DNA of 64,000 bases from Patellaria atrata CBS 101060 (lineage: Eukaryota), in assembly GCA_010093705.1 (NCBI GenBank), contig MU006090.1, positions 372,001 to 436,000 of the forward strand, read 5' to 3'. The position numbers and the translations under genes are program-made. Below the pieces are notes generated by a model, which was not told where the DNA came from, did no database searches, and saw only the letters and a list, made by a program, of their open reading frames with translations. This document shows, one piece after another, positions 37,494 through 64,000 of the stretch. The stretch's first letter is position 1. Each line of letters begins with the position of its first letter.

Positions 37494-37998
37494 GTTTGGG
37501 GTGGGTTGCAGATGGGAAATTAGGATGGACGCGAGGGAGAAGTGTAGATAGAGGGATAGAGATATCGCTAGGGTTCTCAATTAATTTGATGGTTCGATGA
37601 ATAGGGAATTGTGGTCGAATTAAAAGTGTTGGAAGTATTGATCAAATCTTCGTTATCAAATGGTGGCTTGAGCGCGCAACGTTCGAGAGCCAAAGAGGGT
37701 GACAATTGGGGGTTCGTCGTTGCCCAGGCCAAGGCTGCGGCTTCCTAGGGTCTCACGGGCCTGGGGGTTTCCTCTAGGGTCTGACTGGGGACCTTGTTGG
37801 TTCTGGCTCTGCTCTCACCTCAACTCTCACCCTCGATAATACGCATACGGGACACGAGATGTTACTTTTCTGATACTACTTTCATTACCTTCTCTTCTTC
37901 GCCTTCGTTTTAACTTTTTCTTTTCTCTTTTCTCTCCAGATTGTAATTTAAGCTCGACTAATATTCTAAACCAAGCAATACATATTTTAGAGTGCAAT

Positions 37999-43428: not shown

Positions 43429-44613
43429 CCAGATAAGTTCACATGCGCGAGGTTTACAATCTAGGTACGGAGTATAGGACTGAAAGGAGGTTAAATTACT
43501 TCATGCTGCATGTTCATTGGGTGAAGATGGCGGGGATCCCTCATTGAGGTGGTATGAAGGTTAAAGGGGTTTGATATGGAACATTTTGTATAGTAAGGAG
43601 GATTGAATTGTTCACTATCAAAAAAGAAAGAGTAAAGAACAGGAGGATATTCAATACCTATATCAGACTAATAAACTGACAAACGCAATCGTGAATCAGC
43701 ATTTTGCATCTCTCGAATGTTTATATAGAGATACCGTAGGCCGATGTTGAGTAGAAGAGTGTTACTTCGAGTATGTCTTTTATGACCTTTTCCTATTTCA
43801 AGTCATTGAGTTAGGAGCTGAAGAGTTCAAGATGCTTTTATATAGGTAATTCCTGTACTTAGTATATCTTTGAATTCGATTCTTACTGCATTCTGTACTA
43901 TTACTATCTTATGATACTGTACTCTAGTTGATCTCTGATCTCCCCTTTTTCCTCCCCTCGCTCACTGCGCCCTTCCACAGCCCCCGTTTCCCCAAGGAAT
44001 TGAGAATTGAATTCTGTCATTCCGAAATAGAACATTGCAACTGTAAACGTATCCTTACCGTCTTCGAAGGTAGTCTTTTTCTAGAAACACCGCACACCAA
44101 TCCTGTACCGTAACTGTTCGAATCTGCGCTGTCTGGCTAGCTACCGGGCGGTATTCATCGTTGCAGTGACGCCTGGGCTTGACATAGGTACATTTTATGA
44201 AAGCGCCATAGGCAGAAATTACAAGTAGTCAAGTACAGACTTGTACATCGCCTGCTCTTGCTTCATACAAAATACCCGCCAAAAGGTACACAAAAGCCAA
44301 AAAAGACTCACTTCACACTTGGACGTCCACCTTCCCTACCCCATAAACGCTTTCTTCCCACCTCCAACATTTCCTACCGACTCTTTGTTTCTCTTATTGA
44401 TATTTTATCCTCTTACAAAAATTTCCTGGGTTATCGCAGGCTGTCTAAAGCTGCAGATATCCCTGCCTGAAGACCAACCTTAGAACGTCACGGACACCAA
44501 CCCCTCCCACCGTGCACGCCCACACTACCATCCCCCCTCCCCCCCCCCCAATCCCATATTACATTCCTCCAACCTCTGATTACCTTACCCGACCAGCACA
44601 TCGCCCAAAGTCA

Positions 44614-46008
44614 ATATCTCTACCATCCGCTTACAGCAACGAAATCAACGCCCTCAATCGCGAAGTCCTCAACCATCAACCTACCGGCGTCCTCCAGTTC
44701 TGTGCCAACTTCTTCCTCCGTCGTCTCGAATCTCAGCGGGCCGAACCTCTACTGGCCGAACAGCATTCCTCAAGCAAGGAAGGTGGCATGGCTGAGAGCA
44801 AGTTCCCGGGCAGCAATCCTTTCGGCACGAGCCCTAGCGGCACGCTGACGACGAGTGGAATGCATCGTTTGGAAGAAGAAGAAGAAGCGGATACCATCGC
44901 CTCACCCACCGCTTCTTCCTTCCCACGTAGCAACAACAACATGGATCCCAACGCCTCTGCTTCATCCGGTGCCTCGCCCTTTGGCAACTTTGGCGGCTTC
45001 AATCCCACCGGCAAGGGCTCCTCAACCCTCTCTCCCTCCTCTAATCCAGGCGGTCTCGATCCCCAGAGTTTCCCAAACAACTACAAGATGAACCGTCGGA
45101 CATCCGTCTCCGCCGAATCTCTCAACCCAACCTCCTCCCTCCACGAAAACTGGACGCCACCCTACCACAACAAAACCCCAGAGCAGCAAGCACGTCTCAA
45201 GAAGGCCGTCTCAGGCAACTTCCTCTTCTCCCACCTCGACGACGAGCAATCCGTCCAAGTCCTCGGCGCCCTACAGGAAAAGCCGATCCCATCTAAGGAC
45301 ATCAGAGTAATCACCCAAGGCGACGCAGGCGACTACTTCTACGTCGTCGAATCCGGCCACTTTGACATCTACGTCAACGAATCCCGCAACCTCGAATCCG
45401 ACAAGCTTGAATCCGGCCTCATCGACCTGGGGTCCAAAGTCGGCGCCGTCGGGCCCGGTGGCTCCTTCGGCGAGCTCGCCCTCATGTACAACGCCCGCCG
45501 CGCCGCCACCGTCATCTCCTCCGAACCTAGCACCCTCTGGGCCCTCGATCGCGTCACTTTCCGCCGCATCCTCATGGACTCCGCCTTCCAGCGCCGGAGA
45601 ATGTACGAAGGGTTCCTCGAGACGGTCCCACTCCTCGCTTCCCTGACATCCTATGAACGCTCGAAAATTGCAGACGCACTCGAGACACGCAAGTTCCCTG
45701 CCGGCACCAAAATCATCACTGAAGGCGACGTCGGCGACGCGTTTTACATCCTCGAGTCCGGCACCGCCGAGGTGTACAAGCGGGGTAAGGATCAGCCGGT
45801 TAAAACGTACGGCAAGGGAGACTATTTTGGCGAGTTGGCCCTGTTGAATGATAAACCCCGCGCAGCGAGCGTGGTCAGTTCTGAGGAGGTTAAGGTGGCC
45901 TGGTTGGGGAAGAATGGATTTCAGAGACTCCTGGGGCCTGTGGAACCTATTCTGAGGAGAAATGATCCTACCAAGGAGGAGGGTGTTGATCCGCTCGCGC
46001 CGAGATAG
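44614..46008 (+). CDS. pkaR: cAMP-dependent protein kinase regulatory subunit (start uncertain: first AUG 44788; D/D domain from ~44614)
   Basis: RRTSVSAES inhibitor site; two cNMP domains (FGELALMYNARRAAT, FGELALLNDKPRAAS); upstream in-frame RIIa-like D/D segment LNREVLNHQPTGVLQFCANFF. Confidence 0.95.
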   Translation: MSLPSAYSNEINALNREVLNHQPTGVLQFCANFFLRRLESQRAEPLLAEQHSSSKEGGMAESKFPGSNPFGTSPSGTLTTSGMHRLEEEEEADTIASPTASSFPRSNNNMDPNASASSGASPFGNFGGFNPTGKGSSTLSPSSNPGGLDPQSFPNNYKMNRRTSVSAESLNPTSSLHENWTPPYHNKTPEQQARLKKAVSGNFLFSHLDDEQSVQVLGALQEKPIPSKDIRVITQGDAGDYFYVVESGHFDIYVNESRNLESDKLESGLIDLGSKVGAVGPGGSFGELALMYNARRAATVISSEPSTLWALDRVTFRRILMDSAFQRRRMYEGFLETVPLLASLTSYERSKIADALETRKFPAGTKIITEGDVGDAFYILESGTAEVYKRGKDQPVKTYGKGDYFGELALLNDKPRAASVVSSEEVKVAWLGKNGFQRLLGPVEPILRRNDPTKEEGVDPLAPR

Positions 46009-46672
46009 GGGGTGTGTGGGATAGGGATTATGGTAGGAGTGAACTAGGGGATCAAGGATGAAGGTGTGAATGGAGCGTAGAGAAGGAAACGAGGCATAGG
46101 AGGAGAGGGATCGAAACTGTACCCCTTGACCGATATGAGACATGAGGGTCTGTCTGGAGGGTCTGTCTGGCGTTGGACTGTGTGTGTGTGTTTTTTTTTT
46201 TCTTCTTTCCTTTGGTTTGTTTTTATCTTACTTAGTCCTATAGTGAGCTGAGAGAGAGGGTATTACCATATTACACTACACTTCACCACACTACACTACC
46301 TTGCACCACCGTAAGAGACGATGTGAGTATCTATCATATGATGTCTTGCCCGTTTTCGTGTCCGTTCGAGGGTCAGTGAAAAGTAGGAGAGTGAGTGCCG
46401 GGATCTTTGAGAGATGGATGGGGTTTTGGCGTCAGGTTGGTATATGACAGGTCATCAACATCACCGCCGCATTCACATCAAACACATCACATATCACACA
46501 TCACATCACTCAAACCAGCAACCCAAAACCAAACAAAAAGCGAAAAAGAAGTCTATATCTAACTACAGCGGGATACTCGATGCAAGACTCCAAGTTTGAG
46601 TTCGAGTTCGAGGTAGGTTCATAGTACAGCAGGGGTTCTTTGTACAAGGTAGGAGATGGCGTGGTGTTAGGA

Positions 46673-47475
46673 TTATTTGAGGGCTTTGAAGAGCTTGGGG
46701 GCGGCGCATTGGGTTGCGCAGTGTGTGAGGTGGAAGACTGGGTTGTGTTAGTCAGTGGTTTTTGGTTTGGGATTGATAAGAGGGGAGTGTTGTGGTGAAT
46801 GGGTAAGAGTAGAAGGAAGATGCATTGATGCCAATTGCAAGTTTGAGAATGGGAATTAAGAATGCGAAGGTGATCGGTTTCGATTGTTGAATATTGGGGA
46901 CGGGACGTACACTCCTCAACGCAATTCTCATCCGCCTTTCCCTCCTCATCGATCTGCCTCGTCACACGCTCGACGCACTCATCGTAGTGGTGCTTGACTC
47001 CGGAGCATTGTTTCGAATTGGCACATTCTACCCTCACATTAGCACGACCATCTCAGCCCATAAAACCCTTCTAATCATCTCAACTCCCCCAATCACACGA
47101 GAAAAACAAGGAGTCAAACCTACCCTCCTCAAACTTCGGCTTCGGATCCTCCGGCTCCTCTTCTTCCTCTTCCTCTTCCTCCTCCGGCGCCTCTACATCC
47201 TCACTCTCGGCCCTCGCTTTAGCCTGCCCGCCCGTCTGTCCGCCAGTCTGTGGCTTCGTGTCGCTGGTGTCGGTATCGCCGCTGCTCTTCTTGGCGTCCT
47301 TCGCGTTGACGTCGGCCTCCTCGTCGCTCTCCTCGTCGGTGCCGGAGGCGGGCGTGCGCGTGCTCGCGCCCCCGGATACCTGGCCCGACTGCGAGGACGA
47401 GGTCGGGGATTCGGCGTGCGTGGTCGAGGGGAGGAGGTCGGTGGTTAGGTCTGAGAGGAAGCTGAGGAGACCCAT
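46673..47475 (-). CDS. QCR6: Cytochrome b-c1 complex subunit 6 (hinge protein); exons 47475-47124, 47027-46911, 46737-46673
   Basis: Acidic stretch followed by EDPKPKFEE-ECANSKQC...KHHYDECVERV...ENCVEE-FFHLTHCATQCAAPKLFKALK. Confidence 0.93.
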
Positions 47476-48548
47476 TTTGAAACGAGAGGGAGAGAGGGCT
47501 TCAATGGGTGTTCAATTGGTGGTGGGAGGTTGATGATTGATGGGTTGGAGATGGGATTGGAAGCTTTGGAGGTCTTGAGTGCTTTGGCCGGCTTGGCGGG
47601 TTTGGTGCTGGGGATTATTTCTTCGGTGCGTGATTGGCTAGGGATTTGTTTTGTCGAGGACCTTTAAATCAATCGTCTCTACAGTACTAGGTATAGGCAA
47701 CTTTTCAATAAATTCTCTGCTAACCCAAGTGCAGAAGTTTTGAACTACGGTGTGAATCGTCAGACTTGATATCAACATCCCCGGAATGCTGTTCGAGAGT
47801 ACTAGACACGGTAAGGTATCTTTACTCCGTATCCCAGCTAAATACCTCTTTTGGGGGCCGTTTCTTGTTTCCTTCTAATAATATTTCATCGAGCTACTCT
47901 AGCCCCAGGTGTGGAGGCTGTACCTTGTTGTGATTCCACCGGCCATGGTAGTAGATATCTACGATGAGTTCTGCATTTTCTCTCTTTTCAACTTGACCGA
48001 TACTTCATATTTCCTGACCAATAACCCCCATTTCCTTCTTTAATTTTTTCAAGAAATGTTCGCTATTTGGAGATTTGTACTTTACTTCTAGGTGTCCAAC
48101 AAGCGTACATACCCTGGTGTGTACCGTGGTCATCAAAGAGAAAGAGGTTCGAAATAGAAGCAAGAATATGTCCAGAGGGCAATAATGGAACTTCCTGAGG
48201 GGAAACTCCTCCAAAAGATATCCATCCAAGACCGACGTACTTTGAAGCGTTTATTTGTCAAGGAACCGCCTCGAGCAATTGCAACCTTGCTACCACCGAA
48301 GCACGAATTATATAACTTTATTGACATCGACATAGCGGTATGTCCAACGCCCGTACAATTATACAGATCCAGAACACTAAAAACTTTCAAAGGAACGTAT
48401 TGCTATCAGAAAGTCGTCAATATGTCCCAAATGCCAAGCGTTTGCCAGGCTATATGCTTTAATCGATCATCATAGAGGGACCCTTGGTCAGTGGGATGTA
48501 TCTGATCTCCTCCAACAACCTACTGGTATTCAGTCACAGCCTAGGATC

Positions 48549-50618
48549 ATGTTAGGTAGTTTACAAGATCTTGAACGAGAATCTACATCTTGCTCATCTT
48601 GTCGAAAGCTTCGTAATACGTTTACGACACATATTGGTCCGCGTAGTTCCCCGGAAAAGGCTGATGCACATTTCGTTGAGTTCCGGATAGAAAGTTTCCG
48701 TCAACCGTCATTGCTAGTATGTACCACTATGGATCCAACACTGGAGAAGGAGATCTCAGTGTACGCATTTACTCTAATTGAAGAATCTGTATTTGAGAAA
48801 GCTAATAGTCCAAATACCCTAATCTATGGAAAGCTCCTAGACCCAAGTACTGTGGCAATACAATCTGCGCAAAACTGGATAAACAATTGTGACCGAAATC
48901 ATAGCGGTCACTGCGGTAAACTCCGCATTCAACCACTTGCAGAGCCCATCCCTATAATGACAGTCATTGATCTTGAACATGCGAACCTTGTCGAGGTCTC
49001 TGGGAGTGTACGATATGTTGCTCTGAGTTATGTATGGGGCCAACTTCAGGAGAGTCTAGCTTCGTCAAAGAGTAACTTTGAGATACTCCGCAAACCAGGT
49101 GGCTTAAAGTCCGAGGACATATGGCTTGCTCTTCCTAACACCATTAAGGATGCAATGCAAATGCTTCTTGCTATGGGCGAGCGATACTTATGGGTTGACC
49201 GTCTTTGTATCATCCAGGATGATGCTGAAAATATTGCCTCACAACTGGAATCCATGCAATCCATATACGCAAATGCATACTTTACCCTGGTAGCTGCTGA
49301 CGGCTCTACATCTGATCATGGATTACCTGGTGTGGAGGGTGGATCTACACCTGTCTCCCGTCAACAAAATATATGGGACTTGTCTCCATTTTGTAAGATA
49401 CTTTTGGTACAGCGTGATGTTGAATCCGAAGTTACAGGTTCTATCTGGAGCCGACGAGCATGGACTTTCCAAGAGGAACTTCTTTCTCGAAGGTTACTCA
49501 TTTACGTTAACAGGCATTTACGCTGGCACTGTCTAGAGGCCACTTGGAGGGAAGACTTGAACGACGTTACAGACGAGACTGAGGGTCCACTTCAGCGAGC
49601 AGCCAAGTTACGCGTATCCTCACGGTTTTCTAGATCCGTCTCCGGTTGGAATAAACAGCTAGGGGCAAAGCAGCGATCATTCTACCATTGGGCAAGAATA
49701 GCATCTGCATATTCTTACCGCCGTTTGTCATTTCAAAAGGACAAACTCAATGCGTTAGGGGGAATAATGAACATGTTGAGCGACATGTTCGAGACCTCTT
49801 TCCATTTCGGGCTACCTGAATGTTATTTCCACGAGACACTTTTGTGGCAGCCTAGATCACACGGAACTGGAATGGACTCTGGTTTGATTTCAAGACTAGA
49901 AGGTGAACCGGATGGTTTCCATCGAAATACCGTCTTCCCCAGTTGGTCATGGGCTGGTTGGGCTGGTGATGGTATTGAATGGGCTCATGGGGGTTTAGCT
50001 CAGTACAGTCCGCAAGTATACCCTACAACAACTTGGTACAAAATAGGGACTATAAATAACGAGAATCCGTCGTTAGCGAGAATACTCCAAAGCAAACGAA
50101 TGATTATAGAGAAGTTCCACCCAAGAGCACAAGATTGTCAGAGATTCGATGAACCTTTGGTACCTCCCTACGACAATGTTCCAGTTGATACAAGCTCGAA
50201 CTTATCCCCAACTCGACATTGGAGCCTCTATTTATTTTGCCAAACCGATCGTATCTTTCTTACTATTGGAGCAAGACCTGGATATCCACCTTCAGGGCAA
50301 CCGATCCCACATTTCCTTCAGTGGCATTGGTGCTTCACAGAGAATTACCATAGTTTGTTGGATAGAGATGGAGCATGGGCTGGCAACATATTGATTCCTA
50401 AAAACCCCGCGAACGCTTCTATCGAAGGTACGACTTGTGAACTCATCAATATCTCTGCTGGGGAGCACTCTACAGGCACGGGCAAACTCCACAAGTGGTA
50501 TAATGTCCTTTGGATAGCGATGGATGAGGGGGTAGCGTATAGAAGAGCACTTGGAATGGTCTGTAAGGATTCATGGGAGAATGAAAAGCCAGAAAAGATC
50601 GATATCCTAATAGGTTGA
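48549..50618 (+). CDS. Heterokaryon incompatibility (HET, PF06985-like) domain protein
   Basis: WINNCDRNH, YVALSYVWG, LPNTIKDAM, RYLWVDRLCIIQDD, WSRRAWTFQE, FPSWSWAGW. The 5' end may extend upstream. Confidence 0.93.
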   Translation: MLGSLQDLERESTSCSSCRKLRNTFTTHIGPRSSPEKADAHFVEFRIESFRQPSLLVCTTMDPTLEKEISVYAFTLIEESVFEKANSPNTLIYGKLLDPSTVAIQSAQNWINNCDRNHSGHCGKLRIQPLAEPIPIMTVIDLEHANLVEVSGSVRYVALSYVWGQLQESLASSKSNFEILRKPGGLKSEDIWLALPNTIKDAMQMLLAMGERYLWVDRLCIIQDDAENIASQLESMQSIYANAYFTLVAADGSTSDHGLPGVEGGSTPVSRQQNIWDLSPFCKILLVQRDVESEVTGSIWSRRAWTFQEELLSRRLLIYVNRHLRWHCLEATWREDLNDVTDETEGPLQRAAKLRVSSRFSRSVSGWNKQLGAKQRSFYHWARIASAYSYRRLSFQKDKLNALGGIMNMLSDMFETSFHFGLPECYFHETLLWQPRSHGTGMDSGLISRLEGEPDGFHRNTVFPSWSWAGWAGDGIEWAHGGLAQYSPQVYPTTTWYKIGTINNENPSLARILQSKRMIIEKFHPRAQDCQRFDEPLVPPYDNVPVDTSSNLSPTRHWSLYLFCQTDRIFLTIGARPGYPPSGQPIPHFLQWHWCFTENYHSLLDRDGAWAGNILIPKNPANASIEGTTCELINISAGEHSTGTGKLHKWYNVLWIAMDEGVAYRRALGMVCKDSWENEKPEKIDILIG

Positions 50619-51164
50619 GTTACAGTATACAATTTTTGAAACTATGTATTTCTATTTTCCAGGCCCATAATAGCTTTAGAAACGAGCTACTGTACCTTCC
50701 CGTAGTAGTACAAAGTTCTGGTTTCGCAGTTCTGTGATTTGGGACTATTTTCAAAACATCGTCAACTTCGTAGAACCACAGTACTGTACGAATTCAAGTC
50801 AGCGTTTACCGGATGTAGAAGACTCACATGAATTCATATCCACGTATACTTATTTACTTAGGTGGCTGATAGACACGAAAGACACCTAAAGGGTCTTCGA
50901 CCCTTAACCCTATGTAGGTACCTTAGTAAGTTTTGGCCCCCAAACATTCGTGCCTGAAATTCTGAACCTCGAAGAGGAGAACCTGCTCCAATTCTTAATA
51001 CTTCATACACTATTATGCTTTCCACAATATCTTCCATCTATGATAAGAGTAATACGTTATTAAAAACTTGGATCTCTCAAGTTTTGGGCGATTCAGTGAT
51101 GCGTTGGTGCCCCTAATTCAACCTGTAAAGCGCGCCTCAATGGCTCCGCAGAATAAGCATAGAG

Positions 51165-54100
51165 ATGGAGAGGATATTGATCCCGAAGGTGAGTTCATTA
51201 GTACCATCACCATTTAGATTCTTGGTTAACATAGAAAGACTTGTCTAATAAACAGGAGTCAAGCTCTCCTGAACTTTACGACTTATCTCTCGACGAATTA
51301 CCGGAAGCAACTCTTAGGATTTATGATACAACAATTCCAACTCGGAAGAGACATCAGGTTGAAGAGCATTATAATCTTAGTACCACGTTAGATAATAACC
51401 TCCTTTTCCCTAGCCCGCACGAAAGTCATGGGTTTGAGAATAATTTAGCGCTCTCACTTAGTCTAAATCCGCCATATCTCAGACCCGGAGATCCTGTTAC
51501 GCATATCAAATCTGTACCGGATGGCCTGAACACGCATTCTTCAAGACTTATAACGCTCCCAGATGGGATCATACTTACGCCTATAGCTATAGACTCTAGA
51601 CTTGAAACGCACTCTGATCGTGGTTCATTGTCTTTAGAAACTCATCAAAGGACCTCAAAAAATGATGGATTACAACTTAGTCAGAAGGACAACGACTATA
51701 TATCGGCTAATGAAGAAATCCAAGCGCAGACTGACAATCAACGTCCCTTTAGGAGCGGCAGTATCTTTCATGAAATGTCGTTAAGAGTAACGACATTAAA
51801 GGATGAAAATCATAGCGCCGTCCATAAGCTCGTGGAAAATGACCAGGAATCTAAAAGTCACAAATACGACCCTCTAAAAGGTAGAACATTAGGAGTGTTC
51901 TCGTCAAGCAACATAATAAGAAGGAGAGCTTTCGATATATTGACTCATCCACTGACAGAGCCGTTTGTGCTCTTACTCTTGATTGCGCAGATGATTATTT
52001 CGATAGTCGAAACAAGCCGTAATCTCCGCTCACCAGAAACTCGACCTTCATGGAGCGGCTCATCCATTGATTATGCATACCTCTCCATCTTCATTTTATA
52101 CACGTTGGAGATGTTCATCAAGATCATTGCATTAGGGTCATTCTTTACTCCACCAGAATATCGCCAGGGGCAGAGCAGAAAAAATGCTTTCTACACCATA
52201 ATTACTCGAGAAAGGTTTCGGTTTTTCGCACCTCAACGTCCACACTTCCCAAAGAATATCCACCAGAATAGAACCAGTCATGTTATAGAGACAAGACCGT
52301 CAATACTCGAAGGCGTCACAGTCCCGAAACACTACGTTCCTCAGGCAAGGTATCCATTTTTCAGATCAGGTTATAATCAGTTGGACTTCATCTCCGTGTC
52401 AGCATTTTGGATCGCACTAGCGCTCAGATTACATGGTCAAGAAGTCAAAAGATATGTTTCCGTATTTCAGATGCTCAGTTCGCTCCGTCTTCTAAGGCTT
52501 CTGTTCCTCACTTCCGGCACAACTGTCAGTAAATACTCCCCCCTTATTTGCATAACTAATTCATCTAGCGGCTCATACGCACCATGAGAAAAGCTGCTCC
52601 TTTATTAGCGTATACTTCTTTCTTCTTTGCGTTCGCTTGGCTACTATTTGGTCTAATAGGAGTGCAAAGCTTTGCGTCAGGTCTAAAACGTTCCTGCATT
52701 TGGATAGGCCCAGGCCGAATTTCGGCCAACTACACAAGTGCTCAGCACTGCGGAGGAAATATTGATAACAGAAACTATAAATCTTCTTGGCTGACTAGCG
52801 AAGGTGCTTATAGCACCGATACACCTGATGGTTATCTATGTCAACCGGGGTCCTTGTGTGTTGAGAAAAGGAACCCTTTCAACGACACGGTCAGCTTTGA
52901 TAATATCCTTCATTCCCTGGAGCAAGTATACATTATACTATCAACCAACACATTTTCGGATACCCTTTATGCTCTTACGATGAGTAAATCACTTGCTGCT
53001 GTATTTTGTAAGGCAAAATCTATCTTTGGAACTGCTATCTACTAACCGTTTAAGATTTTGTCGTAACATTCATCATTCTATCTCTTTGTCTCGCGAATCA
53101 GGTATATCTTGAATCACCTCGATCTTCGTTGTTTCAAAGTGAGAGAATTGTGGGCTAACATTTCCAGTTTACATCGATCATAGTATATTATTACGCTGTC
53201 ACAAAAGATGAGGACCAGTCTAAAGCTTTTAAAGAGGATGACAAGAAGTCGAATGCTTCGACTGTACATAATCCAGTGGAGACAATCGACCAGGAAGAGA
53301 CTGGGGTCACCCGTCGAATTGTAACGTCAATCACCCGTATTTGGTTTAAAAAGCTTGATCCAGTTTGGATTATTGTAATTCTGTATGGACTATTGGTACA
53401 ATGCTTCCGGACGGCAAATATGACTTCCACACGTCAATTGTTTTTAGGTTTGTCTTGGTCGATTAAGCTGATTCCTGCACTGACTAATTTTGCAGATACC
53501 TCGGAGAGGGTAGTTACAGCTACACTGTTTATCGAAATTATCCTCCGTTTAGCTATGGGGAAAAAGCTCTTCTTCAAGAATGGAAGAGATATAATGGACC
53601 TTGTTTTGGCTCTAGCTACTGCGATTATTCAACTCCCTGCTATCCATAATTCCGGCCAAGTCTATGCGTGGTTGACAATTTTTCAAATCCTTCGAATCTA
53701 CAGAATAACACTCGTGCTTTCACCCTCGCGCGAATTACTTGTCTGTCCTACATACCTCATATACCATTTAAGCTGACAATTTATAGCTTGTAGTGTTTCA
53801 AGACATCGCACCGCTGCTACGTTTCTTTCTATTCATCGCGCTAACTACTCTCATCTTTGCGATATTTGGAGCGCAACTCTTTGGAGGGCACATACCAGAA
53901 GATCGTAGCGATGGCCAGTGGATCAATGTACATTTTTCTACACTTTACAACTCTTTCTTCGGAATCTACCAAATACTTTCTGGTCGTGATTGGACTACAA
54001 TATTGTATGATATCACAGGATCAGAAAAAAGCCATAATCTTGCCTGGTTTGGAGCAACTTTCTGCATTATTTTTTCGATGCTCAGTCTATGTAAGATACT

Positions 54101-57100
54101 AATAATATGTCTGTAACGTTATGTTTGCTGATTGTTGCAGTTCTACTTCGGAATCTGTGTCTTGCTATCTTACGTGGTAGCTTCGAAATCTCCGAGGACG
54201 AAAAACGGCTGAGCCAAGTGAAAAAGTTCTTGAAACAAAAGTACAATAACGAACAACGGTGTGTCCAGGATTTTCTATGGATTCTCAAACTGGGGCTAAA
54301 GCTGATAAAGATTAACAGAGGTACCTCGATCACCGACGGACTAGCACATTGGTATGAAAACACTCTTCAGCAGATGGGTCATATCCCAGAACTTACTAGC
54401 ATATTATTTCATAACTCTGGAGAAGAGCTGGGTTCAGATGACGAACCCCCAAGAGATTCCATGCGAGACGGGCTGAAGGCAATTGAGCAAATCCCCCCTC
54501 TCGTGGCTAATATTCGATCCCTCCTCAATTTTCTTCGTCGGCCATTCAATAACCCCTTTTTTACGCAAGCAGAAAACTGGTTCGACGACAGTGATGACCC
54601 GATAATGGCTGCCAAAAATATAGTTATACGATCAGAACGAATAAGAAAACTCCAGCGTGAATACCTAAGAGCACACCCTAACTTCAATAACTCACTATTC
54701 ATCTTTACACCGGCAAACAGATTTCGGAAAATATGCATGAGACTGCTCGGTCCCGTGGTCGGTGAGCGAATAGAAGGTGTCGTCCCAACTAAAGGCCTTT
54801 GGTACTTCTTTTCCCTTCTGATCTACCTCTCGATTTTGGCACAAACAATTTTGACATGCATCGCGACTCCCTTATACCAGAGACGATATTTTGAGGAACA
54901 TAATTTCAGCATGAACAATTGGATAACCATGTCTGATTTAGGGTTCTGTGTTATTTTTACCATAGAATTTCTGGTTTCGACGGTGGCGAACGGTTTCTTC
55001 TACACCCCGAATGGTTACGTTCGTTCTCTATGGGGTTCGAGTTCTTTTTCTGTGCTCATTGTTCAATGGGTGATCTTAGGCTCATCCATACTTCACGGAG
55101 GTGCTACCTCACGAACAATAGGCACTCTCAAAGCTTTGCGAAGTATTCGGCTACTTCAACTTGTTCATAAGCCGCAGATCAGCTCGGATTTCAGTTCCTT
55201 CTTCATTTCTGGTAGAAAACGGCTTTTCTCTGTATGCATGCTGAAGCCACCCCTACCTGCTCTACATTCAGCAAACTAACACTGACAAAGGCAATTCTGG
55301 TCGCATTCTTTATCCTACTTGGTTCTTCAATATACGCTCTAAATCTCTTTAACGGCCAGATGCTTGCTTGCAATGATAGAGGTAACGGTATCACCTCAGT
55401 TTCGCAGTGCAGTAATGAGTATCTTAGCAAACCTCTTGGTTGGAACATACTTACTCCACGTTATACCACTAACCCAGGTTACTCTTTCGACAACTTTGGG
55501 GCTTCCTTGTTCATATTATTTCAAATACTGTCCCTCGAGGGATGGGTCGAGGTTATGTGGAACACCATGGATGCTACCAGTCCTGGGATGCCTCGCACCC
55601 ATGGAAGTTCGAAATGGAACTCAATTTTCTTCATCTTCTTCAATCTACTAAGTTTGTTCTTCATCTTAGGGCTCTTTACAGCTGTTTTTATGTACAATTA
55701 CGCTTTTGAAACGGGCGTAGCCCATGACAGTCCCGAGCAACGCCTTTGGGGAGAGATGAAAGAGCTCCTACGAACTATTTCCCCCGTATATGCTCCATCA
55801 CCAAAGGAAAACCGAAATCGATGGCAGCTTTGGTGCAGTCAGAGGGGTCGAAATCATGGTGTTTGGTATGGACTGATCAGTTGTGCTCTGGTTTTCCAAT
55901 TGATCATCATGTGCATGGAATTTTACCCACAAAGTGAAATTTGGCATCGCAGTAAGGGTAGGTTGAAATATCTCTCTGACTTTTACTCTTTTGGAGTCTC
56001 TGTTACTAGTCACTTGCCGTACACATTTCAGAATCAGAGTAGTGTCAAGCCAAGTGATGACACTTCTCGACATTTACACCGTAAATGAGAGGTCTTCTAA
56101 AGTGTACACGTACTCAGGAGTATCTTGAAAAGACGATGAATTTCAAAAAAGTTCAACCGTGTGGCTTACAATACTTACAGACGCCTTGTATTTTATCCTA
56201 GTCCTATTATACATCACAGATATCCTCATTCGTATTTGTGGCGGTACATGGACAATCAATTACCATCACAATCCGTGGGATCTATATGGAGCGATCACAG
56301 TAACCGGTGCCCTTATAACTAATATTCTTGTCTTAGTCAACTGGGACCGGAGGGTATATCAACTCAGCCATGGCCTATTTTTGGTTTTCCTCATGGGATT
56401 ACTCATCCCTAGAGTGAGAGTTCTGAAACGAATCTTCCAAACCACGGTGATAGGCCTAAATTCCACATATCATATCTTATTGGTCTGGCTCGTCTTCTAC
56501 GTGATATATGCCATTGCTTTCACGCAATGCTTTGGTCTGACCAAGTTCAATCGTCACGAGAACATAAACGTCAACTTCCGCAGTACATCGAAAACGTTTG
56601 TCCTCTTGTTCCGAATGAGCTTTGGAAAAGGGTGGAATGATATCATGGAAGATTTTGCCACTATGAGGTTCCCCACTTGTGTCCCTACCACCACTCCTTT
56701 CAGTGAGGATTGCGGTAGTGCGGGATGGGCAAGATTCCTCTTCATCTCTTGGAACATTCTCAACAAATTCATATTCATCAATATGATTATCGCTATCATA
56801 TATAACAGCGTGAACTCCGTCTATCACCAAACTACAGGGGTCACACTGCTTAGCATAGATGAAATCCGCCGCTTTCAAGAAGTCTGGGCTAGGTTCGATC
56901 CGAAGGGAACGAAATACATCTCCAAGGAAGACATACCACATGTCCTATCCGTAAGTAATCTATCCTCATTCCTCTACATCATACTTACAACGCCCATAGC
57001 AATTATCCGGTATCTTCGAGATGAAGATTTACACAGGTGAATCCACCATCCCGCAAATCATAAACGCCTGCAAGACCGATACACAAGTTCCCCATCTTCC

Positions 57101-57553
57101 GGGCACCGCTTCCCGCACCATCATCAATCTAGACTTGGATCGTTTGAACCAGTGTATAGCAGACATAGACGTCGCTGCGATCCGTCGGCGGCGTAAACGA
57201 TACCGTCTCCTGCACGAGGAACTGATGGTGTCAGCCGATCCCGACAAAGGTCTACATATCACGAGGATGCTACAGATATTAGCGTACTACACCCTCGTTG
57301 ACGAAACCACGACCTATCTCCGGTTTGTTTTGTTCCATTCCAATTCCCGCTGCTCCTTTACTGACGCATATCTCATAGTCTCGAAGAGTTCCTCCGACGC
57401 AGAGCGCGGCTTCATCGTATAGAAGAGGCGGTTAGAAGGGAATTGGTAACCGGGTTTCTCAAAGTCATTTATTGGTCTGGGAGGTTTCGGGGAAGAAAGA
57501 GAGGTAATCTGGACAGCTTTAGTAGCTATTGGGGTAGCCTTGCAGGGGCCTGA
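51165..57553 (+). CDS. Divergent Cch1-family four-domain cation channel (~1857 aa, 12 predicted introns)
   Basis: Cch1 landmarks in order (LTHPLTEPFVLLL, LRLLRLL..TSGT, KAAPLL, SFDNILHSLE, SEDEKRL.QVK.FL, NNSLFIF, SFDNFGASLFILFQI, NFRS..K..VLLFRMSFG, LEEFLRRRARL). Introns 51189-51255, 52525-52568, 53008-53054, 53102-53167, 53448-53495, 53741-53786, 54091-54140, 54259-54318, 55232-55290, 55958-56180, 56951-56999, 57323-57378 give one stop-free 5574-nt frame. Confidence 0.9.
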
Positions 57554-57582
57554 AACCTGAGGGTGAGTGAATATATAACCGT

Positions 57583-57623
57583 CCGCATATTAGGGATGAT
57601 GGCCATGGGATCGGTTCGCCGAT
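57583..57623 (-). repeat. Diverged partial copy of kinase sequence at 59540-59580
   Basis: 37 of 41 nt identical; encodes IGEPIPWPSSLICG versus IGEPVPWPSPLISG. Confidence 0.75.
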
Positions 57624-58629
57624 AAAGTGTGATTCGATACAAGGTGGAGAGCAAACATTATTTACAGCTTCGGTTTTCCTATCCATAACGCAGTGATTTC
57701 CTTTCGTTGCGTTGCTAGACCCTCCGCGCGCCCTCATCCTCCACCATAACCGAATCCAACACGCCATTATCGAATCATGCTCGCGATGCCAACGTGGGAG
57801 CCCGTGGTGCATACACACCCACATTGACGTAAATAACCATACCGGTTAGTGCCACCGTCCCAATAAGCATGATGACCCACCATAAGACCCAAGATTGTCG
57901 CGGATGGTGAGAACGACCGTGGTGTAGGCGTAACTTTGTCCCAACCAACCCCGCTCTATTCTTATATTCAGGTTCCATCATCATAGTAGGTATAGAGGGA
58001 CGCTGACAGCAGTAGGGGTTTGAGGCGGTTGAACTGGCGGGATGGCGGGTAACTGGATCGAGAGGCTATTGTCGCGAGCGTGAACGAATGAGTGCACCGT
58101 GTTGAGGTTCTGTATTTACCACGGTGTGAGATGTAGGATCCGTGTGATCTGCCATTTCGAATGAGGTCTTGAGTCGCTTTGATGCGTGTTTTGCCAGTAG
58201 GAAGTACTGTGAGGAGGATTACGGTGAAGCTGGAAGAGAAATTTAAGCCGGTAAAGGGCATTCTTGATTGATAGGTTGGTAATTTATCATGAATCTAACT
58301 AAGTTCTCACGGTCGAAGTTCTATTCGGTTGAGTGCCCACGGCAGGAATGGTAAGGCAGAGTCTAACTGTTCAACCGCTGTTTCCAGAAACTAGATCCTT
58401 ATTTAGGTTTGAGAACTCATGGTTCTATTCTTTAGTTTTGCTTCCGTATCATGGGAAAGTATACGGACACTTCAAAACGCCCTTTTAGACCCGAGCTAAC
58501 TATAGGAATGCTGTATGCCCCAGTGGGGAGGAGCTGTATTGTCCGTAGACGGATTCCTGCTCTAGATAGTTCCTCCAGGGTATACAAGCCATATTGGGCA
58601 GGAATCCCCATACGGACAATACGGACAAT

Positions 58630-59961
58630 TCAACCCCCTAACCCCCCCAACTCCCCCACCATCTCCCCCGCAACTCTCCTCTCCCCCGGCGGCCTCCCAA
58701 AAATCCCCCCCAAAAACCCCAAAAGATCCCACCCCAGCGCCTCCCTCAACCCCCTCACCCTCTCCGCCCCCCGTCCCCCCACACAAGCAAGCGGATCCAT
58801 ACTCCGCGCCATCTCCCTTCTCAACAGTAAATTCGCTCCCGCGGCTTCGAAGGGCGCGGATCCGGTAGCGATGAAGAGGAGGACCAGGGCCGCGGCGTAG
58901 ACGTCTGAGGATTCGGTTGGGAGGGGAAGGGGGTTTTGGTTTTGGGTTTGGGATTTGGGGCGTCGGAGGAGTTCCGGGGCTGTGTAGTCCCATGTCCCGC
59001 CTGCTATGGGGGGCGTGTGGTTCGTGTGTGTTGGGAAGGAGGCGGAGAAGTCGGTTAGGAGGAGTTTGGGGGCCGCATCTGGAGTTTGTGTGTCTGTTGA
59101 AGTTGAGGTTGAGGTTGAGGTAGAGGTTGAGCCGGGACAAACGAGGATATTCCCCGGTTTGAGATCCGCGTGCACGACGCCCGCCACATCGTGTAACCAG
59201 GCGAGGGCGGCGAAGAGCTGAGTTGCCATGTCTGTGAAGACGGGGGCGAGGAGGGCGGTGCGTGTGGGTGTTGGGAGGGGGTTTAGGGCGCTGATGTAGG
59301 ATTCGAGGGAGGATGGGAGGGCGGACATGAGGATTGCGCCGTTGCGGGGGTCGAGGCCGTGGAAGGGGACGATGTGCGTTGAGTGATTTGGGAGAGAGGT
59401 GAGGCGGGTTAGGGTACGGGCTTCGGATTCGAGGACGGGGTGGGACATGCGGTCGGCGGGGAGCTTGACGGCGAAGAGGTGGAGTCGAGATTTGGGTTTA
59501 GGTTTGGTGGTGCTGGGTTCTTGGGGTGGAGATGGGCGGCCGGATATTAGGGGTGATGGCCATGGGACTGGTTCGCCGATGTATACGGTACTCCAGTTAC
59601 CTTCGCCGAGCCTCCTCTTCTTGTCTATGATATAGTCGACAGGAGAGCAGGTCTGGAAGTTCATCAGGGGCTGCTTCTCCTGTAAGAGCTCTTCCGAGTC
59701 TTTGCTGTTGCTGTTGGATCCAAATATGGTCTCTAAAGGGCTCTCTGGTGGAGTGTAGACATTATTTGAAGCCTGACCATAGCGAGTTGTTCCTATGGGA
59801 ACTGCAAAGAGGGTTCCATGGGATGTCTTATGAACTCGTGGTTGTGCCTCTCCCTGTACGGAGGTATGTACTTGAGGGGAACACCTTTCATCGCCAGGTG
59901 AAGATGTCAATCTTCCAGATCGAGTCTCACGATCATCTAGACTCGAGCGTGGAGTATACAT
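58630..59961 (-). CDS. Fungal Ser/Thr protein kinase-like protein (intronless)
   Basis: LGEGNWSTVY, FAVK, VVHADLKPGNIL, LTDFSAS (DFG->DFS), GTWDYTAPE, SDVY. Contains an (ST)n microsatellite-encoded insert. Confidence 0.9.
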   Translation of the reverse strand: MYTPRSSLDDRETRSGRLTSSPGDERCSPQVHTSVQGEAQPRVHKTSHGTLFAVPIGTTRYGQASNNVYTPPESPLETIFGSNSNSKDSEELLQEKQPLMNFQTCSPVDYIIDKKRRLGEGNWSTVYIGEPVPWPSPLISGRPSPPQEPSTTKPKPKSRLHLFAVKLPADRMSHPVLESEARTLTRLTSLPNHSTHIVPFHGLDPRNGAILMSALPSSLESYISALNPLPTPTRTALLAPVFTDMATQLFAALAWLHDVAGVVHADLKPGNILVCPGSTSTSTSTSTSTDTQTPDAAPKLLLTDFSASFPTHTNHTPPIAGGTWDYTAPELLRRPKSQTQNQNPLPLPTESSDVYAAALVLLFIATGSAPFEAAGANLLLRREMARSMDPLACVGGRGAERVRGLREALGWDLLGFLGGIFGRPPGERRVAGEMVGELGGLGG

Positions 59962-61302
59962 GATATTGTGTATCGAACTCCGAGGACACGCCTTTTTTGA
60001 TGAAGTAAGAATGTGTATTCTTTAGTCTTCTGTATATCTTTCGAGGATTTGCGGTTTAGATGTATCATACAAGGTATAATTTATAGTTGACAAGAAAAAT
60101 ACGTTGTATATCCGTAAAATACGTGGTGGTAGTACAACAATGTGTCAGTTTTGTGAAACTACCTCCAGAGTCTCGGGCGGCAGGATAGCTCAAGAACACA
60201 ATTGGGTATAGGGTAAAAGTGTACAATACAAAGCAATAAATGATGATAAGAATCAAAAAGGGTGCGAAGAGAGTTATAGAAAACTCCGCCGTGGAGAGCC
60301 GGCTACCACGGGCGAGTGTGACGAAATGGTTAAAAAGTGAATCGTGAAAAGTTTGGTAGAAACCGAAAAAGACAGCGAACCCAAGGAAACAAGAAACAGA
60401 GAAGGGAGCTTCAGAGTGCCCATGATATCTATGTCGTCGTCTGCAAACCTACATTGACAAGTCGGATACCAACTCTTCGGACGGACAAGTGCCATCATAT
60501 CAAGCTCTCGATAAGAGCCAAAACGGTAATTCGCGGGAGGCGGCATGGACGGGAAAAAGCACCCAACAGTCAGGTAGCAAAAGCCAACGTGCAAGATACA
60601 ATCTGCAAGCGATCAGCGACGGCAGCGAGCATCAAAGAACATCCTGAGAGTCGTTTATTATCGATAGAAGCCCGCCCCATTTTCGGCTTTGCTTTCTTCA
60701 ATCGGACTCGGGCGACTGAGAGAGGCGTTGCATCGAAACGTGCCCTTTCCATTGGCCGCGCGACGTTACATATTGGACCTTACAAAGGGAGGTTGCACTC
60801 AACCCCTTCTTCATCGTCGAACAGATCGACTTCTCAAAGGGAACGACGATGATAGTATAGAATGTGGAATACTTCCGCAAGATACCGGTGGCTATATAAC
60901 ATCTCTGCGAGATACCTTAAGATGCAGGACTAAAGCTGGAGAGGAACCCACCTGCTTAAGGGAAACTTCAACCTCACGTGATAGTGAATATCCTCAGATA
61001 TATTATCTCGAAAGTATAAAGTTCTGTTAAATATCTGGCATTGTTCAGTTGAACACCATCAAACCCAGTAAGGGGCAGAAGTATAATTACACGTATTGGG
61101 AAAGTCATTTTCCGTCATCTCGACATTAACAGTCATCATAATCAAACTCTTAACAACTGGAAACAAACAAGTGGGTATCGAAATCCAATATTAATCAACA
61201 TTGTCAACCGCCGTCGCGCGACAGGAACTACCTGCCATCCATTCCAGAGTTGTTATGTCTCCTCCTTATCCGGAAACCACTTCCCTCCCCCATTCTGGAG
61301 AT

Positions 61303-61608: not shown

Positions 61609-61643
61609 CCAGATCATCGTCCAGATCATCGTCCAGATCATCG
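61609..61643. repeat. 12-bp tandem repeat (CCAGATCATCGT) x ~3 overlapping the stop codon of the kinase-like gene
   Basis: Directly visible in the sequence. Confidence 0.75.
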
Positions 61644-63461
61644 CCCATACCAAAATGATCGTTTCTGAGATCGTGAAGTCTTCGGTCTCGCCGCCACCTT
61701 CCCACTCCCAGCAGTATCCTCCGAAATACTGTTAAAAAGCGACAAAGTTCCAAACGAAGAGCTATCCGTTGACGCCCTGAACGTCGAAGGCAAAGACCGC
61801 TTGCTGTCAGCTCTGGCACGCATATAATGCGAACAATGAAGCGACGGGAGTTCCGAGAAATTGAGGAGAATATCCGAAAGCGTATCGGCGACAACCCGAG
61901 CGGTGGGTCTGAATATCGGATTCGGTTCCAACATCGTACGTACGAGTTTCGTTATGTAAGTTATGCCCTTAAAGCAGGGTTCGGTCCCTTCGGCTGCGGA
62001 CTCCTCGAGTATGATCAACCAGGTAGATACGTGCTCGAGATTGGCGTGAAAAGAAGAATCGACTCGAGACCCCCCTCTTTGGGATACTTTGTGTTTGGAA
62101 GCTCGGTGCTTCACGAAGTCGGTAGGCTTTTTCTTAAGTATGAATGTCAGGATATCCACAAATACACACCCGAGCGCATATACGTCGGCCTGTTTAGAAG
62201 CTACAAAGGAATTTGGGCTTGTTTCGGCGTTGTAAAGTGGTGATGTCTTGTCGAATCCGAAATCGAACCCAGCATTAGCCAAGCTTGACATGTTAACAAC
62301 GCTCCCAAGGCTATTTATCTTAGGCCTAAACTGCTTGCGAGATGATGCGCTTGATATAGATTGTCCCGAAGATCCTTTGCTGCTAACGGAACTTTGACGC
62401 GAGGTGGTACCTTCTTTGCGAGCGTCCGGGGTGGAACCCATTGTTGGAGTTGGGATGTGTGCCTCCGGTGCTCCATAATTATAGGTTTCAGTAGGGTCGG
62501 ATTTCTTGTCACGTTGAAAAGATTGCAGGCTGCCGATATCACTGAAAGCGATATTGTTTTGCTTGTCAATTATAATATTCGAAGGTCGGATGGCGGAATG
62601 CGACAAACCATGTCGATGTAAGGCAGCTACAGCATCTGCAAGGCAATGCAACCAATTCAATAAGAGAGGATGTCTATCTCCCTTGGGTACTCTTTGCAAT
62701 TGCATAGGATTGCGATGATCTATGTATGATCTTAGAGTATGTTCTCCAACGAATGGAGTCAAGAAGTATCCCGTTCCTTTCGTGGTATAAGATGCCCAGA
62801 CAGAAGCAACGTGTTCATGGCGAAAGAGCTTCGAGGTCTCGATATCTTGCAGGAATCGGTTGAGACTCGTCGTATCGGTCTCAACGTCTCCTATATTGAC
62901 TTTTCTCCGAACAAATATCTCGTCCGCCCGGCGAGGGAGATGTACTCTTGACCATTTCTGTAGGTAGACTGCGGGTGGTAACTTTTGGACCATTTCAAGT
63001 GGAATGACTTCGTTAGGGCCATATTCGATGTGAACCCCTTCTCGAAGCTCTCGTAGTAGGTAGGTGAACTGCGTCATGTAAAACTTTTGGTTTAGCTGCT
63101 CGTCGTTCTCATATGACAGCGCAAGCGTTTCGACTGTTTCCAAGGGAACTGGTAGGTCATCATCGTCAAATGAGTCGTCGATTACGCCAAATATCTGCTC
63201 GGGTACTCCACACTCCACGAGTGTCAGAAACAAACGCTTTGCTCTTTCCAGAATCCAGTCCAGGTACGTATCGTCTGTAAGGCCAGAGCCGAATCCTAAG
63301 GGTCTGTGAAGTAGTCTTCTTTCATCCGGACGTAGCCTGCTTGAAATGAACTCCGGTGTCACCTTCGCGTCGATTCGTTCCTGGGTCCACCAGACTTGTT
63401 GAATAGCTGTGTGCGGTGTTACCAAAGAGTGCCCAGCATAGCCATATATGAATGCATTCAT
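61638..63461 (-). CDS. Protein kinase-like protein, probable pseudokinase
   Basis: N-terminal DDTYLDWIL..AKRLFLTL..DDDDLP domain, HEHVASVWASY, LHRHGLSHSAIRPSNII, FSDIG, YGAPE, ADVYALGC. Start taken at MNAFIYGY. Confidence 0.87.
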   Translation of the reverse strand: MNAFIYGYAGHSLVTPHTAIQQVWWTQERIDAKVTPEFISSRLRPDERRLLHRPLGFGSGLTDDTYLDWILERAKRLFLTLVECGVPEQIFGVIDDSFDDDDLPVPLETVETLALSYENDEQLNQKFYMTQFTYLLRELREGVHIEYGPNEVIPLEMVQKLPPAVYLQKWSRVHLPRRADEIFVRRKVNIGDVETDTTSLNRFLQDIETSKLFRHEHVASVWASYTTKGTGYFLTPFVGEHTLRSYIDHRNPMQLQRVPKGDRHPLLLNWLHCLADAVAALHRHGLSHSAIRPSNIIIDKQNNIAFSDIGSLQSFQRDKKSDPTETYNYGAPEAHIPTPTMGSTPDARKEGTTSRQSSVSSKGSSGQSISSASSRKQFRPKINSLGSVVNMSSLANAGFDFGFDKTSPLYNAETSPNSFVASKQADVYALGCVFVDILTFILKKKPTDFVKHRASKHKVSQRGGSRVDSSFHANLEHVSTWLIILEESAAEGTEPCFKGITYITKLVRTMLEPNPIFRPTARVVADTLSDILLNFSELPSLHCSHYMRARADSKRSLPSTFRASTDSSSFGTLSLFNSISEDTAGSGKVAARPKTSRSQKRSFWYGR

Positions 63462-64000
63462 GGCTATGGTGTTAGGGGTAATGACGTTAGTCAAGGTTCG
63501 GGAGCCCATGTTGTCGAACACCCGGCCTAAGAGCCTTCGCCAGGAAATTTTGATGCAGTCGAGTGAGACAATTTGACTCACGACGATCATCAAGGAGGAT
63601 GATGGTGCTTGTTAAAGTGGTATGAATCCGTTCAAGGCCATATCCGTTCTCATCCATGCGTCTGCTGTGCTTCTAAGGTAGGTCGTAAAAAGCTCTATGG
63701 GGACAGTTTCGGGTCGTATTTCAGTAGAAAGAGTCAACCATTCAACCCTACCTGCATCTTCACTCTTAAGGTGACCCCACGGCTGGGTTCCCGGTGTCTG
63801 ATAGAGGTCCATAGTGGCAAGCAACAAACGGACCGGGGCTGAGAGGGTGCAAGAGCCAAATACTATACAGGAAGCGGTTGAATTGGCTTAGAGGTAACCC
63901 GAACCCAATATGTGGGCTTTCCGTATACGGTAAGATTTCGCTGGTGGCAGACGTTTTGGAAGCATCCTCGAATAAGATCAATCCAAAGGTACTTAAGCAT

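Follow-up and report, generated by a model that had tools for sequence, protein, structure and literature searches.

The channel gene and its product

The 64-kb window analysed here (64,000 nucleotides of contig MU006090.1 from the wood-decay fungus Patellaria atrata CBS 101060, assembly GCA_010093705.1, positions 372,001 to 436,000 of the forward strand) contains a gene for a four-repeat cation channel homologous to the fungal calcium channel Cch1. The gene lies at window positions 51140-57553 on the + strand, and the protein of 1871 amino acids (aa) that it encodes, here designated P0001, has been deposited as 'hypothetical protein M501DRAFT_998132 [Patellaria atrata CBS 101060]' and bears the UniRef name CCH1. 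P0001 carries two basic residues in its selectivity filter, and the same strain possesses a second, canonical Cch1, designated P0125.

The exon structure was first rebuilt by hand from open frames and GT-AG sites and was then compared with the deposited P0001. With a start at 51140 and 12 GT-AG introns, splicing reproduces P0001 letter for letter, yielding 13 exons and an open coding sequence (CDS) of 5616 nucleotides (nt). A protein search with the exon translation of window positions 56183-56950 likewise returned a 100% match to P0001. Eleven of the introns measure 44-66 nt and one measures 223 nt. An earlier note on this DNA had described an intact gene, unlike a pseudogene, with 12 introns, all four channel repeats and a stop-free frame of ~1857 aa. 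The gene is indeed intact (1871 codons are open and 12 of 12 introns have GT-AG borders), and the introns, the frame and the repeats were recovered as described. What did not agree with the deposited P0001 was the start ATG, which the earlier model placed at 51165, and the acceptor of intron 1, which it placed later while sharing the donor at 51189 with the deposited model. By coordinate arithmetic the earlier model falls 42 nt (14 codons) short of the deposited one, hence its 1857 aa, and the remainder is identical. Because the N-terminus is not conserved, 51140 and 51165 are both candidate starts.

The Pfam family Ion_trans (PF00520) matched 8 of 10 exon translations with E-values from 1e-5 to 6e-20, and these matches cover repeats I to IV, in agreement with the earlier count of four repeats. 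In the protein alignment, spliced P0001 runs collinear with P0125 and shows no gap at any exon junction, and it does not have the long C-terminal tail of canonical Cch1. DNA contigs from two runs of one sample cover window positions 51000-57700 with 0 differences and 0 gaps; this sample is probably the source sample and hence not independent support for the assembly. The gene is made up as follows, with S1-S6 denoting the segments of each repeat and the basis of each assignment in brackets.

51140..57553, + strand: complete coding region of P0001, the diverged CCH1 paralogue (splicing reproduces the deposited protein)
51140..51188, + strand: exon 1 of the deposited model; alternative ATG at 51165 with the same donor at 51189 (splicing reproduces P0001)
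51239..52524, + strand: exon 2, N-terminal region and repeat I S1-S4 (Ion_trans, E 1.6e-10)
52569..53007, + strand: exon 3, repeat I S5, turret with four conserved Cys, and pore loop STNTFSD (Ion_trans, E 7.3e-10; Nav1.8 alignment)
53055..53101, + strand: exon 4, repeat I S6 (gene model; collinear with P0125)
53168..53447, + strand: exon 5, I-II linker and repeat II S1 (gene model)
53496..53740, + strand: exon 6, repeat II S2-S4 (Ion_trans, E 1.1e-5)
53787..54090, + strand: exon 7, repeat II S5, pore loop SGRDWTT and S6 (Ion_trans, E 4.6e-12; Cav1.2 alignment)
54141..54258, + strand: exon 8, end of repeat II S6 and start of the II-III linker (gene model)
54319..55231, + strand: exon 9, II-III linker and repeat III S1-S4 (gene model; Ion_trans scan)
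55291..55957, + strand: exon 10, repeat III S5, C-x-D...C loop, pore loop SLEGWVE and S6, and repeat IV S1 (Ion_trans, E 1.3e-17; Cav1.2 alignment)
56181..56950, + strand: exon 11, repeat IV S2-S6, pore loop FGKGWND, and start of the C-terminal EF-hand-like region (Ion_trans, E 6.3e-20)
57000..57322, + strand: exon 12, C-terminal cytoplasmic region (gene model; aligns with P0125)
57379..57553, + strand: exon 13, conserved LEEFLRRRARL segment and stop (gene model; P0125 alignment)

Two of the introns, 53448-53495 (48 nt) and 54259-54318 (60 nt), are in frame and stop-free, and their retention would keep the frame open. Removing the 48-nt intron leaves no gap relative to P0125, so that homology supports its removal; the 60-nt intron being in frame and stop-free, its removal follows the deposited model only. 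Intron 10 (55958-56180), with its 223 nt, is about four times the size of the other eleven, and no residues are missing at its junction in the protein alignment.

The selectivity filter and the canonical Cch1 of the same strain

The filter residues of P0001 were assigned by alignment to solved channel chains. In repeat I, the Asn of P0001 stands opposite the Asp of the Nav1.8 motif 'TQDSW'; in repeat II, its Arg stands opposite the Glu of the Cav1.2 motif 'TGEDW'; in repeat III, its Glu stands opposite the Glu of the Cav1.2 motif 'TFEGW'; and in repeat IV, its Lys stands opposite the Glu of the NALCN motif 'TGEDW'. The codons concerned, all read directly from the DNA, are listed below.

52947-52949, + strand: filter residue of repeat I, Asn572 (AAC), as in canonical Cch1 (Nav1.8 alignment)
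53985-53987, + strand: filter residue of repeat II, Arg849 (CGT) (Cav1.2 alignment)
55537-55539, + strand: filter residue of repeat III, Glu1310 (GAG), the sole acidic residue left in the ring (Cav1.2 alignment)
56627-56629, + strand: filter residue of repeat IV, Lys1599 (AAA), where relatives have Glu (NALCN alignment)

The earlier note had put R and K at filter positions and had given 52947, 53985, 55537 and 56627 as the codon coordinates; the coordinates are exact, and the solved Cav1.2 (for R) and NALCN (for K) bear out the positions. The ring of P0001 therefore reads N-R-E-K, with a net charge of +1, as opposed to N-E-E-E with a net charge of −3 in canonical Cch1. In a set of 148 proteins of at least 1700 aa, P0001 included, N-E-E-E was present in 146 of the 147 other full-length relatives, the remaining one having an alignment gap at repeat III. 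The same ring was present in all 43 of the other full-length matches (43/43) from a protein search with the repeat IV exon. The pattern that the earlier note had called typical of Cch1 is, upon tabulation, effectively invariant. Just outside the ring, P0001 retains or has acquired acidic residues, namely an Asp at I+4, II+1 and IV+4 and a Glu at III+4. The Asp directly beside the Arg, to which the earlier note had attached weight, is not special, as SSEDW and FSSEDW are present in a few relatives with an N-E-E-E ring.

The full-length protein search with P0001 retrieved P0125, a protein of 2104 aa deposited as 'calcium channel-like protein subunit Cch1 [Patellaria atrata CBS 101060]'. Its pore loops are SSNTF / SSENW / SQEGW / IGEGW, which corresponds to N-E-E-E, and it keeps 211 of 211 invariant columns. 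P0125 is not encoded within the 64-kb window. P0001 and P0125 are each recorded on a contig of 2,321,667 bases, and because of this the two genes are probably located on the same scaffold. Their proteins share 40.8% identity over 1677 aligned positions. A paralogue had been suggested before, together with a search for a canonical CCH1, and the existence of an N-E-E-E copy in the same strain upholds that suggestion: P0001 is a paralogue and not the P. atrata CCH1 orthologue. The matches listed in the full-length search, most of which are named Cch1 or calcium channel, cover 80-95% of the query at 37-42% identity (E = 0). Among these listed matches, P0125 (1390 bits) is not the best-scoring one, the protein of Lepidopterella reaching 1441 bits. 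The deposited P0125 lacks ~28 residues in the S5-turret region of repeat I, including the first conserved extracellular Cys, which are kept by all other canonical Cch1 proteins; this is probably an annotation error in its gene model.

Divergence, constraint and phylogenetic placement

P0001 has diverged far more than its relatives. In a tree of 37 rows (LG+C20 with posterior mean site frequencies, 1989 columns), its end branch measures 4.29 changes per column versus a median of 0.32, which is ~13 times the median, and in a tree of 16 rows the corresponding values are 5.17 and 0.40. Among the listed matches other than P0001 itself, the best ones reach 47% identity in repeat IV and, over the full length, 42%. 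Of the 216 columns in which the other 147 proteins do not vary, P0001 has changed 75 (35%), whereas five control orthologues, including those of Orbilia and Geopyxis, have changed 0-2 such columns. The filter changes are thus part of a protein-wide burst, and the earlier idea of a rebuilt filter is weakened accordingly. Where columns are conserved at 0.9 or more, P0001 keeps 111 of 169 in the voltage-sensor domains, 170 of 280 in the pore domains, and 71 of 109 in the linkers and termini. Repeat-induced point mutation (RIP) was considered as a cause and does not explain this divergence, because the dinucleotide indices of the gene match those of the rest of the window (TpA/ApT 0.81 and 0.79, respectively; (CpA+TpG)/(ApC+GpT) 1.13 and 1.11, respectively). 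A drift towards AT-biased amino acids was also considered and is only marginal: the FYMINK residues (F, Y, M, I, N and K) make up 0.292 of P0001, within the range of the others, and the GARP residues (G, A, R and P) make up 0.212, compared to a minimum of 0.213 in the others.

To judge the divergence against neutral expectation, the CDS was subjected to simulations. None of 100 runs was stop-free at 10, 20, 35 or 58% amino-acid change, the mean numbers of stops ranging from 9.6 to 50; of random substitutions in the P0001 CDS, 3.5% create a stop. The bulk of the divergence must therefore have arisen under selection for an open frame, and decay of the gene is compatible with these results only if its death was very recent. 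The identity between P0001 and P0125 declines with column class from invariant to variable (0.65, 0.60, 0.40, 0.35 and 0.22). Cys is kept in 11 of 11 columns where the canonical proteins have Cys at 0.95 or more, and P0001 has thus retained the conserved Cys that form disulfides. The kept residues include eight extracellular Cys (four in repeat I, two in repeat III and two in repeat IV) and the repeat III L5III motif 'CND...C', which has the form C-x-D...C. As stated in the passages of Hayashi et al. that concern these residues (PMC7489899), the eight extracellular Cys of yeast Cch1 (4+2+2) are essential, and the L5III Cys-x-Asp...Cys is needed for Mid1 binding.

P0001 nests in the Cch1 proteins of the Pezizomycotina, with a Shimodaira-Hasegawa-like approximate likelihood ratio test (SH-aLRT) value of 100 for the clade that excludes Orbiliomycetes and Pezizomycetes. 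In three trees it is placed somewhere inside a clade of Dothideomycetes and Arthoniomycetes (SH-aLRT 90, 88 and 94). The grouping of P0001 and P0125 as direct sisters, which had been fixed as a hypothesis ahead of any tree, was rejected by the approximately unbiased (AU) test on 16 rows (delta log-likelihood 5.7, p 0.006). Long branches tend to be drawn to the base of a tree, and the AU test is subject to the same effect, so that the rejection is a provisional one and does not date the duplication.

A second group of diverged Cch1-like proteins consists of P0254, P0386 and P0267. Their rings, which were re-checked, read R-D-D-E, R-E-N-E and, for the partial P0267, R-E-S-?. The nearest named relatives of this group are Capnodiales-type Cch1 proteins, for example those of Cladosporium, Pseudocercospora and Fulvia. 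In the tree, P0254 and P0386 share a stem of 2.73 and group with Cladosporium, Zymoseptoria and Pseudocercospora (SH-aLRT 100), and P0001 is placed elsewhere. In each of the three proteins, 34-35% of the canonical-invariant columns have been altered, as large a share as in P0001, and all are, like P0001, second-type Cch1 homologues in Dothideomycetes with long branches and a basic ring residue. They differ from P0001 in that the basic residue is in repeat I, not in repeat II or IV, and in their independent origin, and their identity to P0001 is only 27-29%. The numbers of identical derived residues are 17-38 among the three proteins and 2-7 with P0001. A common origin of P0001 and this group was considered and is unsupported, given the separate places in the tree and the 31-33 shared changed columns versus 24-25 expected, of which only 6-7 have the same residue. 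The clade of P0254 and P0386, whose proteins are intact and full-length, would have outlived one split or more, which suggests that such paralogues can be maintained. From these sequences, fast-evolving CCH1 duplicates with a basic ring residue seem to have arisen at least two times in the Dothideomycetes. A filter table of more distant representatives, which was based on a rough alignment that includes partial and possibly misaligned models, contains further odd rings (K-E-G-T, E-N-Q-E, N-A-E-E, S-S-E-E, N-E-E-G and others, among P0326, P0334, P0279, P0367, P0348, P0303, P0306 and P0358) that serve as leads only.

Proposed function, alternatives and setting

On the evidence of its sequence, P0001 is probably a selected, functional paralogue without Ca2+ selectivity. 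It would be a retained, very fast-evolving CCH1 duplicate that works beside the canonical P0125. The passages that deal with the filter of fungal Cch1 present this channel as permeable to Ca2+ and rich in glutamate (10.1101/2025.04.04.647097; PMC5824947), and a filter Lys is described as disrupting high-affinity Ca2+ binding and favouring Na+ in the rings DEKA, DKEA, EEKE and EKEE (10.1101/2025.04.04.647097). Since the ring glutamates form the high-affinity Ca2+ site and two of them have been replaced by R and K in P0001, we infer from the filters of Cav, Nav and NALCN that this site was lost and that P0001 would not form a Ca2+-selective channel. Together with Mid1, P0001 might then form a monovalent leak or a low-conductance pore, by functional analogy with NALCN and Nav, which became permeable to Na+ through E-to-K shifts, and the flanking acidic residues at I+4, II+1, III+4 and IV+4 could still attract cations to the pore. 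The specific proposal that P0001 conducts monovalent cations, as a Mid1-associated and non-Ca2+-selective cation pathway, is a tentative one, in which our confidence falls somewhat short of even.

Like canonical Cch1 (P0125 and yeast Cch1), P0001 has four Ion_trans repeats, an Asn at filter position I, a place among the Dothideomycetes Cch1 proteins, collinearity over ~87% of the length at 40-42% identity, and the same pattern of conserved Cys including the L5III C-x-D...C. Unlike canonical Cch1, it has the filter N-R-E-K in place of N-E-E-E, replacements in 35% of the universally invariant columns, a ~13-fold longer branch and shorter N- and C-terminal tails, and it is a second copy. NALCN, the sister family of Cch1 according to the parts of the literature that treat this relationship (10.1101/2025.04.04.647097; PMC5824947), is the solved channel that matches repeat IV of P0001 best (E 1.6e-19). 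NALCN is described as using a Mid1-like partner, FAM155, and it shares with P0001 a filter change from Glu to Lys, its own filter being EEKE, or EKEE/EEEE by splicing. The Lys of NALCN is, however, located in repeat II or III, whereas that of P0001 is in repeat IV and is accompanied by a second basic residue, Arg, in repeat II and by Asn in repeat I. P0001 also differs in that it arose inside fungal Cch1, outside the NALCN and Nav clades, and in that its conduction is only predicted. For Nav1 (DEKA) and the cnidarian Nav2.5 (DKEA), a change of a ring Glu to Lys is reported, in the passages on these filters, to have turned a Ca2+-preferring channel toward Na+ (10.1101/2025.04.04.647097). Those channels have one basic residue in a ring with a net negative charge, are voltage-gated and belong to another subfamily, whereas P0001 has two basic residues and a net charge of +1.

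Several points weigh against a functional, conducting P0001. The finding is limited to a singleton from a single species, whose function is predicted only, and a HMMER search of 1.84 billion representatives yielded no close relative, the next best match scoring 251 bits at 38% identity versus 749 bits for P0001 itself. The even loss of conserved columns over the domains looks like a general relaxation and not like a targeted change of the filter, and in repeats I, II and IV the S6 segments have changed strongly at their cytoplasmic ends. To our knowledge, there is no natural four-domain channel with two basic residues and one acidic residue in the ring, and such a ring could block cation flow entirely. 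A pore-dead regulatory subunit, which would fold, reach the membrane and bind Mid1 or other partners without conducting, is an alternative that, judged by the sequence, is somewhat unlikely. Such a protein might serve as a sensor or a scaffold, or might compete for Mid1 and draw it away from canonical Cch1. The ring charge of +1 with R and K is consistent with this alternative, as are the retained extracellular Cys and Mid1-contact motif in L5III, the changes in many invariant residues at the S6 ends (for example M889L, F890C, Q895R, E896G, E1658N, F1660V and Y1662S) and the availability of P0125 to carry Ca2+. Yet the conserved columns of the pore domains have been kept about as well as those of the voltage sensors (170/280 versus 111/169), whereas an idle pore might decay faster, and the acidic residues beside the ring have been kept or gained.

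It is distinctly unlikely that P0001 is a decaying duplicate, a weakly constrained copy that has lost its expression or its function and in which a stop codon has simply not arisen so far. The 75 altered columns out of 216, compared to 0-2 in the five control orthologues, are what such a gene might show, and so are the even spread of changes across domains, the singleton status without any relative above 47% (repeat IV) or 42% (full length) identity, the neighbouring HET-domain gene and kinase-like open frames described below, and the slightly lower GC content (0.43 versus 0.48 in the rest of the window). Against decay stand the simulations, in which an amino-acid change of only 10% already entails 9.6 stops on average and leaves 0 of 100 runs stop-free, as well as the intact GT-AG borders of all 12 introns, the conservation gradient that follows canonical Cch1, and the retention of all conserved Cys. 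Moreover, a function for P0001 becomes more plausible because an independent diverged lineage has survived a split, by analogy and not as proof. An origin of P0001 through horizontal transfer out of some unsampled fungal lineage, instead of through duplication within the Patellaria line, is very improbable. The AU rejection of direct sisterhood (delta log-likelihood 5.7, p 0.006) could be read in this way, as could the fact that P0125 is not the top match (1390 bits versus 1441 bits for Lepidopterella). However, the AU test shares the pull of long branches toward the base, all three trees place P0001 inside the Dothideomycetes and Arthoniomycetes, both copies apparently lie on one scaffold, the intron sizes are typical of the surrounding genome, and the RIP and dinucleotide indices of the gene match the window. 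Lastly, the idea that P0001 is the only, fast-evolving Cch1 orthologue of the species, or an artefact of assembly or annotation, is refuted by the canonical P0125 outside the window in the same strain and by the exact reproduction of P0001 upon splicing, and its probability is practically nil. The model derived by hand from the sequence is in accord with the deposited protein, and the DNA contigs match the window with 0 differences, albeit not independently.

P0001 as such was already public under an automatic name, and it is the Cch1 paralogue with an altered filter that, from its sequence, appears to be new. Full-text literature searches, with the supplementary tables of phylogenetic papers outside their scope, returned no paper on a Cch1 paralogue with an altered filter and no paper that ties Patellaria atrata to calcium channels. 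Where the literature touches upon fungal Cch1, it is treated as a single-copy, glutamate-rich Ca2+ channel (10.1101/2025.04.04.647097; PMC5824947). A retained copy with R and K in the ring, beside an intact canonical copy in one genome, is a natural experiment on the change of selectivity after duplication, and a step of the same kind as the one that produced Nav and NALCN in animals. R849 and K1599 provide a concrete, testable residue pair. If Mid1 is still bound by P0001, the paralogue could also modulate calcium signalling. The second diverged clade suggests recurrence as opposed to a one-off accident. A broader view, in which the recurrent Dothideomycete CCH1 duplicates with basic ring residues would constitute an undescribed class of fungal four-domain channels, selective for Na+/K+ or otherwise not selective for Ca2+, alongside Cch1/Mid1, is rather unlikely; if true, it would amount to a fungal replay of the transition from Cav to Nav/NALCN.

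The channel gene is directly preceded by an open frame of 745 aa with a heterokaryon incompatibility (HET) domain (E 5.6e-32; window 48381-50615, + strand). Directly downstream are two open frames with partial protein-kinase matches (58633-60021, − strand, E 3.7e-13; and 61641-63611, − strand, E 7.2e-18). Together, the HET gene and the kinase-like frames around the channel gene suggest a lineage-specific neighbourhood. Genes of a housekeeping type are located further upstream, namely those for a G-patch/GCFC protein (35277-37580, − strand), a regulatory subunit of protein kinase A with two domains that bind cyclic nucleotide monophosphates and an RIIa domain (44449-46005, + strand), and the ubiquinol-cytochrome c reductase hinge protein (46513-47052, − strand). 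The GC content at window positions 50001-56000 is 0.42-0.43, which is under that of most of the window (0.44-0.56), and the dinucleotide indices are not RIP-like.

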